A model generated the notes under the pieces. The model had not been told where the DNA came from and did no database searches. It saw nothing but the letters and a program-made list of their open reading frames with translations. DNA of 62,781 nucleotides, the filler included. It is 12 parts of 12 records of this genome, joined end to end, with 100 filler letters (N's around TTAATTAATTAA, not from the genome) between each part and the next. Parts side by side here need not be neighbours in the genome. Positions count along the whole stretch, not along the records: positions 52,922 to 57,468 come from SRR7504441_4768; 11 more parts are not named here. The stretch is one strand, 5' to 3'. Within the stretch, counting starts at the first letter, position 1. Every line of letters begins with the position of its first letter. Positions 24,032 to 57,568 of this stretch are shown piece after piece. The position numbers were made by a program, and so were the translations under genes.

Positions 24032-24071
24032 TGCAAACAGATTAAATATCAATTGCGGTGTCCAACATTGA

Positions 24072-27000: not shown

Positions 27001-28894
27001 AGAGTTGCGGCTGAGAGCACGAGGCCTGCTTCGCCCAGGCACTGTAGGCGTCTCAGGCTTGGCCGGCTGGCTCGTGTATAGCTCCCACGCCGCCCACCTG
27101 TGCATCTGAGCTTAGGCCGGTTCAACTAGGCGCATTCGGACCATTTTCCTGAAATCAGGTACAGATCCGTTCCAGGGGCGAAGGTGATTGCCTCAGGGTT
27201 GAAATCGGGGCTTGCCCGCTTAATGGTGGCAGCTTCATTCTGTGGATTGCGCGGTTGCACTCTCAACTCTGTGCAGGTAATTTCCCACACCTAAAGCATT
27301 ATCAGGAACCCAAACCAGCGGAAGCAACTGACTGTGTCTAGGAAGGCTACAGCCAGTGGGTGCTCCCGGGCCCAGTCTTTGTACTGTAGCTCATCCAACC
27401 CGTGGCTCTGCGAATCCACCTCCCTGAACGCTTCTTCTAACAGCGCCTCTATCTCGGGAGCCAGAGCCGCCTGCCAGCCCCATGCATCCGGCCCGCGGAT
27501 TGCGTATTGTACCTCAGTTGTGGGACGGCGCTGTCGGGCCTCTTCGGCGCTCCATACACATTGCAACAACTGCGGAGCAACACGTAACAGGGCGACTGAC
27601 ACCAAGCGCTACCTGTTTGAACTCGGCTTTTGACAGGCAACCATCGCCGTCTGTATCAAACACTTGAAAAGCAAAAGCGAGCTTCTCGTCGAAGGAGCTC
27701 TGGCAGCAGATGGCCACCTGGTGCGCCGCTGAGCCCCACGGGGAAGCAGGGCCGGCACCCCCGTCACAAACTCTTCCATGTTGAGTGTCTTTGAGCCGGT
27801 CCGGTCCAGAGCCCCGAACAGCTGACCGGCCTGTCTGCAGCAATCGCCCGCTGGACCACCTGGGTGACCAGCTGCATAGGGAGCCCGTTTCCATTGCTCT
27901 CCGGCCCAAACACCTGGGCGAACGTGGCCAGGTCCAGCACCTTCATCCCTGCCGCCCTGTAAGCCGGCCTGCAGCCGCCCCTCGTACGTGAGCGCTGCTT
28001 GAGTTGTTCGAACACTAGGCACAGGTCCCCCACAGTGTCGGTCGAGAGCTGAGTGGCCTGTCCCTGCCCTGAGCCAGCGCCGTGCTGCAGCCACCTCAGC
28101 CATCCGCTCCTTGGAGAGCGACTGCCGGCTCAGCCTCTTGGTGCTCGCCGATGCCTGGAGCCTGGGCTGGCCGGCGCCGAGCCGGATGCAGCACCTGGGC
28201 CGGCAGGCCAAGGATTGTAGACTCTACCTCAAAGATCCAGTGCACTAGCGGGGCCTGGCCCCTGGCTCGGCCTGCGGCCGCGGGCGGGCGCACTGTGGTG
28301 TGGCATGCTGCCCAACGCATGAACTCCTCGATCGCCAGCGTGTCCCCCTTGACCGAATCCTCAAACGCGACGATCAGGCTCTCGGCATCGGTCCGACCGC
28401 GGGCGTCGGTGCTGTTCCCGAGCTCCTTGAGGAAAGGGGACAGCTCGGATTTGGAAAGCTTGTGGTCCCGCTCGGTGTCGTAGACGTAGAACCTGCGGCT
28501 GAGCTCAACTGGACCGCTGGCCGGGGCCGAGTCACAGCATCCGCAACCGCTGCTCCGGGGTGCCGCACTTGAGCACGCAAAGCCCGCACCTGCACCCGGA
28601 GCAGTGGGCTGGGGCTCGGCGGCCGGGTTACACAAACTCCTCCCAGCCGATGGTCTGGTCGTCGGTGGTGTCAAACGCTTGGAAGATGCCCTCTTGCAGA
28701 AGCGCCGGCATGTTGGGGATGCTGGTCCCGAGGAAGCCTTCACGGAACGACCGGCGGTTCAGGCGGGCCGCCTGCACCGGCCTGCCGTGGCAGAGCCGGC
28801 TGAACCCGGCCTTGAACCGGGCCAGCTCGGCGCGCCCCAGCTTCTGGACGGCGGTTTCATAGTCAAGGATCACCCGCGAAGCGCCCCCACCCAT
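24072..28894 (-). CDS. USP32: USP32-like deubiquitinase (EF-hands, DUSP, USP catalytic domain), multi-exon
   Basis: MGGGASRVILDYE start, EF loops, WWYGGGP, spliced Cys box GLQNLGNTCYMNSALQCL, QQDAQE, His box NHQGVLGGGHY and a C-terminal CaaX (CRVM). Confidence 0.85.
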
Positions 28895-52243: not shown

Positions 52244-52819
52244 CTAGGCGTGTCGGTCGGCCACAAAGCTGGCCCAGCTGTCCGGTTTTAGCCGGGCCTC
52301 ATACCCCATCCCGGTTATGTATCCTCTCAACATGGGAGACGCCCCGTAGCTCGCGCTGGCCGGGTTGGTGGCCGAGTCGCAGTGCACGGCTATCCCAGAG
52401 GCCTCCGCCGGTCCGAGCTCGAGCTCGTGCCTGAGCAGCTCGGCGATTTCGACCGACAAACACACCTCGTGCAGCAGCCGAGTCTGGAGCACTGCATACT
52501 GCCGCTTGTTTTCGGTGCACCGGCGGTACCAGTACAGCGCTCCCCGGCCGGGCCGGTAGAGCGCCACCACCGACGAAAAGCTGACTCTCTCCCCGCGCGA
52601 CTGCGAGTCTGAGCCCACGTGGATCTCGTAATTGTGCTGCGGATTCGCCCGCCGAATCTCCTGGAGCCGTTGAACGAGCCGGTCGGTGGTGAGCAACTCC
52701 GTGCTGGGCGAGCACCACAGCGGACCGGATGCCCCGCTCGCCGCAGGCTCCCGCCGCAACCACCGCCGGCCCAGCGACCCCAGCGGCTGCCGGCACGCAG
52801 CGGCCCGTCTGGCCAACAT
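52244..52819 (-). CDS. RNase H-like YkuK/DUF458 family protein with a putative mitochondrial presequence
   Basis: IHVGSDSQ, YRPGRGA, RLLHEVCLS, VHCD, GYITGMGY and KPDSWASFVADRH; Arg-rich, acid-free N-terminus. Confidence 0.82.
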   Translation of the reverse strand: MLARRAAACRQPLGSLGRRWLRREPAASGASGPLWCSPSTELLTTDRLVQRLQEIRRANPQHNYEIHVGSDSQSRGERVSFSSVVALYRPGRGALYWYRRCTENKRQYAVLQTRLLHEVCLSVEIAELLRHELELGPAEASGIAVHCDSATNPASASYGASPMLRGYITGMGYEARLKPDSWASFVADRHA

Positions 52820-52921: not shown

Positions 52922-53010
52922 GTAACCATGCCCGGCTTGAATTATGGATGCTATTCTAAAGAACCCGATTTTACTCACGTACGTGTTGCAATTGACGCAC
53001 GTCGACGTGA

Positions 53011-56000
53011 TTAGACTTCTTCCTCTAGCAGGACAATCCCGACATCAGCAGTTTCAGAAGACTCCACTTCCTCATCAGCAGCTGCAGCCGCATCAACCTC
53101 CTCGCTAACCTCAACAGCCGCTGCAGCTATCTCAACCTCCTCGCTGCACTCCTCAGCCGCCACCGCTTCGACAGGATTGCTGCCCTCAGCAGCTGATCCC
53201 ACTTCCTCTATTGGAATTGCATCGCTGCCTTCAAATGCTGCCCAGTCTGTGTCCGCATCCCAATTTGTTTGGTTCCCGACTCGATAGATCTCGTCCAGCT
53301 TCTTATTGAAGGCCTCTGGGTCATCTTGGCTCTGCAATTCTTTATACACGAGATACAAGTGCAACGCTGCCTTGGAATCTTCGATACTGTCGTGCGTGTC
53401 CACCTGCAAGCAACCCCAGCACCCTCAGCACACAATTTATACTAGCGACGCTTACTTGGAAATCTTTGAACTGTTCGCCCCTCAGCAAGTATGAGATCAT
53501 GAACCGGAGCCCGATCCGGCGCTGGCCGCGCTTCCAGAATAGGTCGAGTGTGTCGATCACTTGGCTTGGTGGCACTAGGATGTTGATGATCCGGAAATCA
53601 TTCTTCAGCCCGTGCCCAATGAAGATCACGCCCTTGCTCACCATGTACGCCAGCTTCTTGTAAACCGACTTGAGAGGCAGCAAGTGGTGCCGCGACAGCC
53701 CAGGGTCAAGATCACCAGGCTTCAAGCCAGAGAAACGCGTCAGATAATCTTCTACATGCTCTCGCGTAGCGATGTAGTCATCGATCAACGGTACCCCAAG
53801 CATCGGGCCCTCAGCCCGCACCACCGAGACCCGCCCGAGTGCATACGAAGCTTGGCGGCTCACTTGCTGCGACCCGTCGGTCCGGATCTCTACCTCGGCG
53901 CTCTTGATTTGGACAAACTCTGCATCCAACGCCACCAGCGAGCCCGCCTCAAGGACTTCCCCACTCTGAAGAGGAACAAACCGCACAGGGAGTGGGTTGG
54001 CATTGGCGATGCTTCGTGATACACCAGCTGCAAGGATATTCTTCAGTTGTGGCTGTGTGGGCACTGTATCTGTGTTGGCTATCTCAGGCCTCGCGTACAC
54101 CAGGATGCAGGGAGTTTTCCAACTGGCGGTGAAGTCGAGCGCTTCCTGCTCTGAAGTCACAGTCACCCGGAAGTCGTTGAACACATACCATTGCACTGAG
54201 CTCTCCGAGCTAGCCTCTCCAGGCGCTGCCTGCTGTTCCAGATACCCTGGGGAAACACGAACAATCGCCACAAAATGGTCCTTCCGAGCGCCCTTCTTCC
54301 GCTGATCAGTGATGCGTGCAATCACAGCCGTCAGCACATACCGTTCGTGCTCCTCCGGGTTTTCGGGATCTTCTGAGACTTTGACCGTCTGCTCGTCTTT
54401 GTCCACTTGCAGCGAGAACTCCCTCCGAAGCCAGGTGGGCGACGACCGCCACATCTGGAGCTTGGCGTCCTGATCAGACCCGGACAGGTCGCACTTGAAC
54501 ACCAGCGCCGGTGGGATGAGCGTGAGCACAGAGGACGAATGGAACAGGTTGGACCGCTTGCACGCGGAGCACTTCATCCGGAATTTCCGGGCCTTGCACA
54601 GCGTCTGGGTCATGATCTCACAGAATGAGCTGTCCGCAGTGGCGTCCTCATACTTCATGCAAAATGAAGTCTCGTTCGAAGCCTGCTCCTTGGTGGACAG
54701 GCAGCCCTCGCACCGCATGTAAGATACCATCTTGGAGGTGAAAAGGTCGGACACAGTTGACTTGGCCCCGGTCTTCTCGTGACTGTCCAGGCTTTCTTTC
54801 TGCAGCTGTGAGAGGAAGAAGTCACAGAATCGTTCTACACGCTGGAAGTAGGGCACATTGGTCGAGACCTTCTGCCCACTGACCGTATCAAGCAGGCACA
54901 ATTGCTCGGCTGTGGGGTTGTGCCGAAGAGCACGCAGGAAGTTGCTAGCGTGGCAGGTCAGCCCTTTTGATGTGTCAAGCATCCTGAACAAGAACCCCAG
55001 CTCTGAGGTGAGCGAATGCTGCTTGTCGTCATCATGCGCCATAATGGACAGCCGCACAGGCGCCAGGAAGTACAGTGTCTGGATCCACGGATTGGCATAG
55101 TCGTTCGGGAGCCCGTTCTCGAGCCCACCAAAGCATGTGCTGTTGTAAGCCTGGAAGTCAAACTCGCCCGCATAGCCCTTGGCCCCGGGCGCCATCTTGG
55201 GCAGCTTGACTTGCACCCGCCTGTACAATGAATCGACCGGGTTTTTATCGTCCTGAGGCGACATCTCCGGCATCCGCGCACCCTTGCCCTTGCGGTGCAT
55301 CGGGCTGTCAGCTTTCATCGGTGTTCTGAGTACCTTGGCCATGGTTTGAGTATTCGGCTTGAGTTTGATAAAGTTGCTCATGTGCCATACCGCGCCCCTG
55401 TTCTGCATGGCGTGTTTCCACTCGGGCCGCACCCTGAACGGGCCATGCCTGAAGAACTTTCGGGCCAGCTTGGACGAGCCCACCCAGGAGGACGCAAGCT
55501 TATCCGGCCCAGCCATTGAAGGCAGCACCGTCCCGGCGGCGGCCAGCGGCGAATCCTCTCCGAATCGAAACCCTGGCGGCTCTGGGTACCTGGGCACTCT
55601 GTGGAACTGGGTTGGGCTGCGATGGACGGTGTACTCGGGCTTATCGGCCCACAAGTGCACGCAGCTGGCAGTATCCCCAAAGCAGATGACCTCTCCCGAG
55701 GGCGAGACCTGGAGGGAGGTGAGCAGCTCGCCACAGGTGTCCACTTGGAACCAGGCGGCCGACGAGAAGTCGCCGAGCACTTCCATAATTGAGAACTGCC
55801 CGTTGGCGGCTGCGACCACCAGAGAGCCGGTGTATGTCGGGTGGAACTGGACCAGCTGGGGCCCGGCCACGAACGGCACCTTGGCCACCGGGGCCATGCT
55901 CCGCCGCAAGTCAAAGATGTTGACCATCGTGTCCGGGTTGTATCGGCCATGCCGGAGCGACGCGCCGCAGGTGGCAACAAGCCCATCCTTGCAGTCTAGA

Positions 56001-57400
56001 GAGGTCACCCCGCCGGTGTGGGTCGCCTGGACGGTGGTCTGCACCGCGAGCGAGCGGGTGTCCCTGATGCACACTTGGCCCGTATCACTCCCGCACACGA
56101 GCGCCCGGCCCTCCATGCTCAGGCAGCTCACCCCGTTCTCGCACTCCATGGACGAAACTGGCGAGCCGCGCCGAATGTCGAAGTTCACAATGCTGCTCTG
56201 CTGCCCGAGCGCCAGATGGCTCGCCCCGTGGCCCGAGTGCGGATTGTTGAGCACAGTCGCGCACCGGACGTGGTTTATGCACTCGTGCGCCACAGCACTC
56301 TGGTAGAGCCCATTTCTGGCCATCACATGCAGTCCAGTGGGGCACACCAGCACCACCTTGTCGGTCTGGTGGACCACTTGCACGATCGCCCCGGGCGGCT
56401 CGCCATGCTCGTCGTAAGGCAGCCCGCGGGATACGTACCGATCCATGTCATCGGCAGTGAAGCATGTTGCGCGCGCCTGGCCTGTGCCGGCCCAGACCAT
56501 TTCCGTGCTCAGGTCGAAACTGAGTGCCGAGACTGGGTCGTTACGCGGCTGGTCCTCGCGCTTCCAGCACGACTGACTGTGCATCCCGGACCAGCCTTGC
56601 ATCCCCATCTCTTGGTAGCCCTCCTGCCCGTACGCTTGCTGGTCGTAGTAAGCCTCCCCAGCCATCGTCTCTTCACCCTGATAGTGGCCCGCCCCATCAG
56701 CCTGGCCATCATAGTACCCGCCCTCCTCGTACTCCTCTTGAAATCCGGCCTCCGGCACAAACTCTTCAGCGTCCTGCCCGTCCGGTAGTGTCGCGTCCTG
56801 CCCGTCGCCGCCATGAGGCACAAAAACTGCCGCGTCCGCGTTGGGCAGAGCGGACATCTCCACGTGCTCCACCAGCTCCACGGCTTGCGGCACGAACGCC
56901 GGCGCCCCGGCGTCGGGCAGCCCGGCGGACTCTGCGGGCTGCTCGGGCGGCGCGGTCGCCCCCTGAGGGACGAACGCCGGCGCTGCCGCGTTCGGTAGAC
57001 CGCCGGGCTCGGCCTGGACTGCGCTCTGCGGGACAAACGCCGGCGCCGCCGCGTTGGGCAGCGCGCTCGTCTCGGCCGCTACCGGGCCGCCTGCGGTCTG
57101 CGGCACGAAAACCGGGGCAGAGGCGTTGGGCAGGGCGGACATCTCGACGTGCTCGACCAGATCGCCGGGTTGGGCCTGCGGGACAAACGCCGGCGCCCCG
57201 GCGTTGGGCAGGGCGGACATTTCCACGTGCTCGACCAGCTCGACGGCCTGCGGCACGAACGGCGGCGCCCCGGCGTCGGGCAGCCCCGCCGGGACGAAGC
57301 TGGGCGCCGCAGCATTGGGGAGGCTACCGCCCTCCGGCACACTCGCCTGGGCGGCTTGCGGCACAAACGCCGGGGCCGCCGCGTTGGGTGGCGTTGACAT
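53011..57400 (-). CDS. PAN2: PAN2 deadenylase catalytic subunit
   Basis: WD40 region, pseudo-UCH (FDFQAYNSTCFGGLEN; WYVFNDF; WKTPCILVY) and DEDDh nuclease (ALDAEFV, DYLTRFSG, GHGLKNDF, HDSIED after intron 53404-53455). Confidence 0.95.
56750..57400 (-). repeat. Coding repeat array: ten PAM2-like motifs in the PAN2 N-terminus
   Basis: (L)P[ND]AxAPxFVP nine times plus LPDGQDAEEFVP; linker LVEHVEMSA three times. Confidence 0.85.
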
Positions 57401-57468
57401 GGCTCCTTGCACTCCTTGTGGTCAGCCCGACATCCCTCGGGCCTCGGCTCTCAAAAATTTCCGTTAAA

Positions 57469-57568
57469 NNNNNNNNNNNNNNNNNNNNNNNNNNNNNNNN
57501 NNNNNNNNNNNNTTAATTAATTAANNNNNNNNNNNNNNNNNNNNNNNNNNNNNNNNNNNNNNNNNNNN
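57469..57568. other. Artificial contig spacer
   Basis: N44-TTAATTAATTAA-N44. Confidence 0.98.

Follow-up and report, generated by a model that had tools for sequence, protein, structure and literature searches.

The window examined here, a stretch of DNA of 62,781 nt, comprises 12 short contigs chained by linkers in which TTAATTAATTAA is flanked on each side by 44 N (22 N-runs), and which carry stops in all frames. As the contigs are chained by N-linkers, neighbouring genes are not physically linked to the gene described below, and no neighbourhood inference is made across a linker. The contig at 52922..57468 (4547 nt), which derives from a metagenome bin, contains one gene and nothing else, the gene for the poly(A) nuclease PAN2, whose product opens with an array of ten motifs resembling PAM2, the peptide recognized by poly(A)-binding protein (PABP) through its MLLE domain. 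The host is a GC-rich eukaryote seen in marine metagenomes among the public sequencing runs.

The PAN2 gene lies on the minus strand (57400..53011), contains a single 52-nt intron and encodes a complete protein of 1445 amino acids (aa). Exon 1 (53456..57400) comprises 1315 codons beginning with the ATG at 57400..57398, the intron (53404..53455) is of the GT..AG type in phase 0, and exon 2 (53011..53403) supplies 130 codons and the stop codon TAA. The unspliced open reading frame (ORF) seems to stop early, while exon 2 provides the H-x4-D exonuclease motif and aligns with P0002, a transcript-derived protein from EukProt which is the only full-length relative found (56% identity). Once the intron is removed, the DEDDh ExoIII motif (VDTHDSIEDS) is complete, as it is in P0002, and both DAEF and H-x4-D (THDSIED) can then be read in the exonuclease domain. 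Following the array and an acidic linker rich in Tyr, Glu, Gly and Gln (residues 218–285; 56546..56749), which is also present in P0002 and in a second relative, P0003, the protein contains an N-terminal WD40 domain (residues 289–585; 55646..56536; Pfam PF20770 PAN2_N, 1.8e-30), a UCH-like pseudo-protease domain (residues 759–1079; 54164..55126; PF13423 UCH_1, 3.8e-65) and an RNase_T/DEDDh exonuclease domain (residues 1156–1298; 53507..53935; PF00929, 2.4e-10) extending into exon 2, all on the minus strand. The UCH-like domain starts with GLENGLPNDYANPW, which has no Cys at what we take to be the site of the catalytic Cys in active USPs. The gene is a complete PAN2 poly(A) nuclease, as a preliminary description of this DNA had proposed and as the three Pfam matches bear out, and the encoded enzyme is probably active as a nuclease.

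The array occupies residues 3–217 (56750..57394, minus strand), in an acidic region. In an ungapped register which places the Phe at PAM2 position 10, the unit reads x-L2-P3-N4-A5-x-A7-P8-x-F10-V11-P12. The ten copies, all on the minus strand, are motif 1 (PPNAAAPAFVPQ; 57353..57391), motif 2 (LPNAAAPSFVPA; 57284..57322), motif 3 (LPDAGAPPFVPQ; 57245..57283), motif 4 (LPNAGAPAFVPQ; 57173..57211), motif 5 (LPNASAPVFVPQ; 57095..57133), motifs 6 and 7 (both LPNAAAPAFVPQ; 57023..57061 and 56960..56998), motif 8 (LPDAGAPAFVPQ; 56882..56920), motif 9 (LPNADAAVFVPH; 56810..56848) and the divergent motif 10 (LPDGQDAEEFVPE; residues 205–217; 56750..56788), which keeps A7, E9, F10, V11 and P12 but not positions 3–5. 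The strict pattern [LP]P[ND]A.A[AP].FVP identifies nine copies, starting at residues 4, 27, 40, 64, 90, 114, 135, 161 and 185, and the motifs are spaced 13–26 residues from start to start. Chance does not explain the array: when the first 229 residues were shuffled 20,000 times with their composition preserved, the strict pattern was never produced, and the bare skeleton [NSD]..A..F.P, observed nine times, was found on average 0.043 times per shuffle (maximum 2). At the DNA level, a period of 78 nt is detected by Tandem Repeats Finder (2.6 copies with 76% matches), and a repeat search identifies a 48–57-nt unit in 8 copies as well as a duplicated block of 113 nt (56814–56926 and 57177–57289, 86% identity). 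The coordinates, the count of ten copies in the first roughly 215 residues and the origin by DNA-level duplication, all of which had been read from the sequence beforehand, are thus confirmed.

Immediately before 3/10 motifs in the window and 2/5 in P0003 stands another conserved element, (E/D)[LF]VEHVEM[SG]A. In the window it is located at 56849–56875, 57134–57160 and 57212–57238 (minus strand), where LVEHVEMSA stands just before motifs 9, 5 and 4, respectively, while in P0003 it is found at residues 43–51 and 71–79. The first 229 residues of the window protein contain 51 Ala and 37 Pro (38% Ala + Pro) and are without Lys, Arg, Ile, Trp and Cys. An AlphaFold2 model of residues 1–620, built from a 3-row alignment and poor throughout (mean predicted local distance difference test score 34.4), has no secondary structure in residues 1–259 and strands from residue 290 onwards. 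The model supports no more than an absence of predicted structure before residue 260; the array region may be intrinsically disordered, with which its composition agrees.

The ATG at 57400 is preceded by an in-frame TGA 24 nt upstream, and no earlier in-frame ATG escapes this stop. When the nine canonical copies are compared with one another, the proportions of synonymous (pS) and replacement (pN) differences are 0.529 and 0.025 for the seven core codons, and 0.52 and 0.135 for all 12 motif codons; the Phe is encoded by TTT in four copies and TTC in five, and the Val by GTG in five and GTC in four. A synonymous divergence of about 0.5 combined with near-zero replacement in the core indicates that the copies are old and that the peptide has been maintained. 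Public contigs from 4 runs could be aligned to the gene in six pieces, the uncovered parts being uninformative; 18 public runs contain small shares of the words sampled from the stretch, none of them half or more. These contigs reveal eight population variants in the array, six of which are synonymous, four of the latter (L135, A139, L185 and F193) falling inside motifs. The two replacements are V107G, in a spacer, and A38T, at the variable position 13 after motif 2, and one more difference is located at 53038 in exon 2. Were the long antisense ORF (56524..57516) the reading frame, these six synonymous variants would, by arithmetic, fall on second codon positions. Third codon positions have a GC content of 0.84. 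From an oligo-dT RNA-seq run, two 151-nt contigs lie over 56751–56901 and 56907–57057, and contigs of a metatranscriptome run (X5) cover 56422–56671 and the 3′ end (52968–53163), which is modest support for translation of the array since DNA can be present in RNA libraries. An independent DNA contig (run X4) covers 57212–57418, thereby crossing the ATG, with 1 difference.

Residues 1–229 were compared with 1,835,955,588 representative proteins; of the two matches, the only true relative is P0003, a metagenomic orthologue fragment of 229 residues. P0003 opens with M-LPNASAAAFVP, with a Met directly before its first motif, and contains four canonical copies, then a last one that is divergent, followed by the same Tyr/Asp/Glu-rich linker and the first WD40 strands of PAN2. 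Over its N-terminal region the window PAN2 is 47% identical to it (alignment A2), and the copy number differs between the two (10 in the window, 4–5 in P0003). Counted over the two species together (15 units), F10 and P12 occur in 15/15, A5, A7 and V11 in 14/15, P3 in 13/15 and N4 in 12/15. P0002 begins with MLRSLVGSEMCIRDR (residues 1–15), which looks like a translated sequencing adaptor and makes this N-terminus an artefact of assembly. P0002 is therefore 5′-truncated; its true 5′ end is missing and it cannot show an array. There is no Met in P0002 between these first 15 residues and the WD40 domain, and its translation start must therefore also lie upstream of the acidic linker.

Word-indexed homologue searches returned P0002 alone for the whole protein (1/8000 candidates matched) and for residues 285–800 (1/6975), and P0003 alone for a 44-residue stretch of two motifs compared with longer proteins at E<=10 (1/1328). 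When alignments A2 and A1 were used to scan metagenome contigs, 198 and 581 pattern matches were obtained, respectively, none of which encodes a relative, and the ESM Atlas gave no usable match to the PAN2 N-terminus. The other match among the representative proteins, P0004 (1580 aa, with LPDGSIKTSFKPK-type repeats, E 1.9e-8), is probably not homologous, as it shares only an EVEHAEMGSL-like stretch resembling the VEHVEMSAL spacer.

Translation of the array and selection on it are both very probable, and a start at the ATG at 57400 is strongly supported. A start further downstream is unlikely in view of the upstream TGA, the synonymous nature of six of the eight population variants, the contrast between pN (0.025) and pS (0.53), and the Met that precedes motif 1 in P0003. 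The same observations bear on a check that the preliminary description had proposed, in that they support the array as a translated N-terminus and not an untranslated leader.

As set out in the structure-based definition of PAM2 (PMC2854688), position 3 is hydrophobic (Leu, occasionally Pro or Phe), position 4 is Asn (or Ser), which has a turn-stabilizing role and touches the Glu in the signature of MLLE, position 5 is Pro, Val or Thr, Ala 7 is invariant, Phe 10 is invariant and matters more than any other residue, and position 12 is usually Pro. Among the ten window copies, position 3 is Pro in nine, which is the rare state of the definition, and position 4 agrees with it in the seven copies that have Asn, the others having Asp (2/10) or Gly (1/10), while Ala 7, Phe 10 and Pro 12 are present in all ten. 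Position 11 is Val in 10/10 and position 2 is Leu in 8/10. In this alignment the array fits the published definition at five of the six defined positions, i.e. 3, 4, 7, 10 and 12, and the PAM2 skeleton that had been recognized in the motif beforehand is thus upheld. An ELM-style PAM2 regular expression, to which no weight is given, matched 7/10 copies.

The closest known counterpart is the PAM2 in the disordered N-terminal region of PAN3 (human PAN3, yeast Pan3), which belongs to the same enzyme complex and has the same presumed partner, the MLLE domain of PABP, and which, like the window array, has Pro 3 and no Phe 1 (PMC2854688). Through this motif the PAN2-PAN3 complex is described as being recruited and stimulated by PABP, with a dissociation constant (Kd) of ~40–150 µM, two motifs per complex and avidity invoked to explain binding (PMC4158885). 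The window array differs in that the motif is on the catalytic subunit PAN2, in ten copies per polypeptide rather than one per PAN3 (two per complex), with Ala at position 5 and with binding that is here a prediction. A second counterpart is PAM2-C of eRF3/GSPT1 on the MLLE domain of PABPC1 (PDB 3KUJ), which shares the skeleton P3-N4-x-x-A7-x-x-F10-V/x-P12 and is a solved case of a Leu-less, Pro-3 PAM2 binding MLLE canonically (PMC2854688). In eRF3, Phe 1 and Pro 3 together fill the Leu pocket, whereas position 1 of the window array is small (Ala, Gly or Ser) and position 2 is Leu, and eRF3 has two overlapping sites on one MLLE, whereas the sites of the window array are separate and 13–26 residues apart. 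Single PAM2 sites of eRF3 are reported to bind with a Kd of 3–4 µM, and PAN3 and Tob to bind with as much as 30-fold lower affinity than the overlapped site of eRF3 (PMC2854688).

Pro in place of Leu is the most telling feature of the array, as Pro 3 is shared with both the PAN3 PAM2 and eRF3 PAM2-C, and the copies are best read as the PAN3 subtype of PAM2. The preliminary description had regarded this replacement as a possible sign of low affinity per motif, an expectation with which the Kd of PAN3 (PMC4158885) agrees, while the worry over Pro as such is largely answered by the eRF3 structure (PMC2854688). A polypeptide with several PAM2 motifs associating with Pab1-bound messenger ribonucleoproteins is already known in Upa2 of Ustilago maydis, where four motifs are scattered over a 232-kDa scaffold which is not a nuclease and for which they are described as dispensable (10.1101/455378), compared with ten in 215 residues here. 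Canonical PAN2 (yeast Pan2, human PAN2/USP52) shares the WD40 domain, the linker, the inactive UCH domain and the DEDDh exonuclease, and in the form described in PMC4158885 it begins with WD40 and has no PAM2, while the window protein has ~285 extra residues before WD40. Reviews and primary papers likewise place PAM2 on PAN3 and depict PAN2 as WD40-UCH-exonuclease, and the ‘N-terminal extension’ mentioned in PMC4158885 refers to zinc fingers. No paper placing PAM2 in PAN2 was found by a phrase search of ~8.4 million full texts, a collection to which subscription-only literature is external.

The array is a real, conserved and selected feature of a complete PAN2. The interpretation we favour, and to which we give somewhat better than even credence, is that the N-terminal extension carries ten PAM2-type motifs predicted to serve multivalent docking on PABP. 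Several observations weigh against it. Position 5 is Ala in 9/10 copies and Gln in the tenth, where PAM2 has Pro, Val or Thr, and the substitution P5A lowered the affinity of Paip2 5-fold, while without Leu 3, the residue that fills pocket A, it fell by three orders of magnitude, according to PMC2854688. In the array this pocket-A Leu is replaced by Pro, and the Phe 1 which compensates in eRF3 PAM2-C is absent, a gap for which Leu 2 might substitute in the Leu pocket. Glu 9 is found in copy 10 only, and two copies have Asp at position 4. The Pfam PAM2 model (PF07145, E<=10), applied with no positive control and hence of little weight, matches neither the 217-residue N-terminus nor any of the ten single-motif peptides, and phmmer with the N-terminus, together with a profile of the ten units, retrieves no chain from the PDB at E<=10. 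Furthermore, the array is carried by only two sequences, and no more than 68 nt of contig lie upstream of the ATG.

Part of this evidence would suit an array that is equally real and selected and whose partner is another MLLE-type domain (of a HYD/UBR5-like ligase or Rrm4-like) or an unrelated peptide-binding domain. The failure of every sequence model of PAM2 (Pfam, phmmer and profile), the departures from PAM2 preferences at positions 5 and 9, and the VEHVEM(S/G)A element before three of the ten window motifs and two of the five in P0003, which has no counterpart in the PAM2 definition, all point in this direction, and MLLE domains with other types of ligand exist (PAM2L/Rrm4: PMC9249222, 10.1101/2024.03.22.586338). 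However, the invariant or near-invariant residues P3, N4, A7, F10 and P12 are exactly the MLLE-contact positions of the solved Pro-3 PAM2 of eRF3, and use of a Pro-3 PAM2 is known for the complex of a single enzyme, which is the very protein that carries the array. To our knowledge no other class of motif shares this skeleton, and a partner other than the MLLE domain of PABP is regarded as unlikely.

The biased composition (51 Ala and 37 Pro in 229 residues), the visible duplication in the DNA and the change of copy number between the two species (10 versus 4–5) would also be compatible with a low-complexity expansion that is tolerated in a disordered tail and has no specific partner, its likeness to PAM2 being fortuitous. 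A synonymous divergence of ~0.5 with a core pN of 0.025 is, however, unlike a neutral recent repeat, the same core is kept in P0003 at 47% identity over the N-terminal part, and the population variants avoid replacing motif residues, all of which make such an expansion improbable. That the array lies outside the mature protein, owing to a start at a downstream Met (62, 88, 183, 245, 265 or 267) or to a mis-assembled 5′ end, might be argued from a 4547-nt metagenome-bin contig that ends 68 nt before the ATG and from the truncation of its closest full-length relative, but is very improbable given that paralogous and population differences follow the codon positions of the PAN2 frame, which has a GC content of 0.84 at third positions, that P0003 is laid out likewise, its Met preceding motif 1, that P0002 has no Met from its adaptor-like residues to WD40, and that the independent DNA contig of run X4 crosses the ATG.

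If the motifs are ligands of PABP, as we favour, a mechanism can be proposed from the anatomy of the protein. The WD40 domain of Pan2 is reported to contact the ribonucleoprotein of Pab1 and poly(A) and to be needed for the preference for long tails, and the MLLE domains of the bound Pab1 are described as flexible and free (PMC6547884). The acidic, structure-poor tail directly N-terminal to WD40 would then anchor the nuclease on more than one PABP simultaneously through ten weak MLLE ligands, and through avidity the affinity would increase sharply as more PABPs occupy the tail, so that long tails would be favoured. The preliminary description's suggestions that this PAN2 reads tail length or depends less on PAN3 are speculative. 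It is a further and distinctly unlikely step that PABP docking has moved from PAN3 to PAN2 and been multiplied tenfold to form a tail-length ruler based on avidity, in which case a PAN3 lacking PAM2, or the lack of PAN3, would be possible. The window PAN2 and P0002 are highly conserved in the PID linker, the part of PAN2 to which Pan3, as a dimer, attaches in the complexes already characterized (PMC4158885), and this argues mildly that PAN3 may still be a partner. In the window, regular expressions for the MLLE signature had no match in the six-frame translation, and a Pfam scan of 50 ORFs (43 of at least 200 aa, among 115 stop-to-stop ORFs of at least 150 aa, at E<=1e-5, and 7 of the contig with the ubiquitin-protease gene described below at E<=10) identified no PAN3, PABP or MLLE.

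What makes PAN2-PAN3 prefer long tails coated with PABP is a subject of active research, and current models combine weak contacts between the PAN3 PAM2 and MLLE with recognition of the Pab1 oligomer by the WD40 domain of Pan2, as presented in PMC6547884 and PMC4158885. If the favoured interpretation is correct, ten copies of a PAN3-type PAM2 beside the WD40 domain would be a natural, ready-made test of the avidity idea, and also an example of a short linear motif switching subunit within a conserved complex. Should the motifs not bind MLLE, they would still be a clearly selected, lineage-specific array of linear motifs on a core enzyme of mRNA decay.

Three minor observations concern sequences other than the PAN2 gene. 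The putative peptide SPDFNPEAITFAPG (27171–27209, minus strand), with the core FNPEAITFAP, has a more canonical PAM2 skeleton (F3, N4, P5, A7, F10 and P12), and is the sole loose-skeleton match outside PAN2 in the six-frame translation, where ~1 is expected by chance (a rough estimate); the Pfam PAM2 model does not match it either. It is located on the contig at 24032–29005, just upstream of a gene for a ubiquitin protease with DUSP (6.1e-14) and USP (UCH, 8.6e-32) domains, and an ORF further upstream of that gene contains weak EF-hand matches (best E 0.0013, below the Pfam cut-offs). On the side of the presumed partner, a degenerate KITGMLLE scan of viral contigs identified 14 loci, 10 of which (L001, L002, L004, L005 and L009–L014, on IMG/VR contigs of giant-virus metagenome-assembled genomes) have Pfam MLLE domains (49.5–76.9 bits, cut-off 27), and giant viruses thus carry PABP-type MLLE domains of their own. 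Finally, an ORF at 52244–52819 (minus strand) on the neighbouring contig contains a Pfam RNaseH_like domain (PF04308, 7.2e-27) and is unrelated to the PAN2 array.

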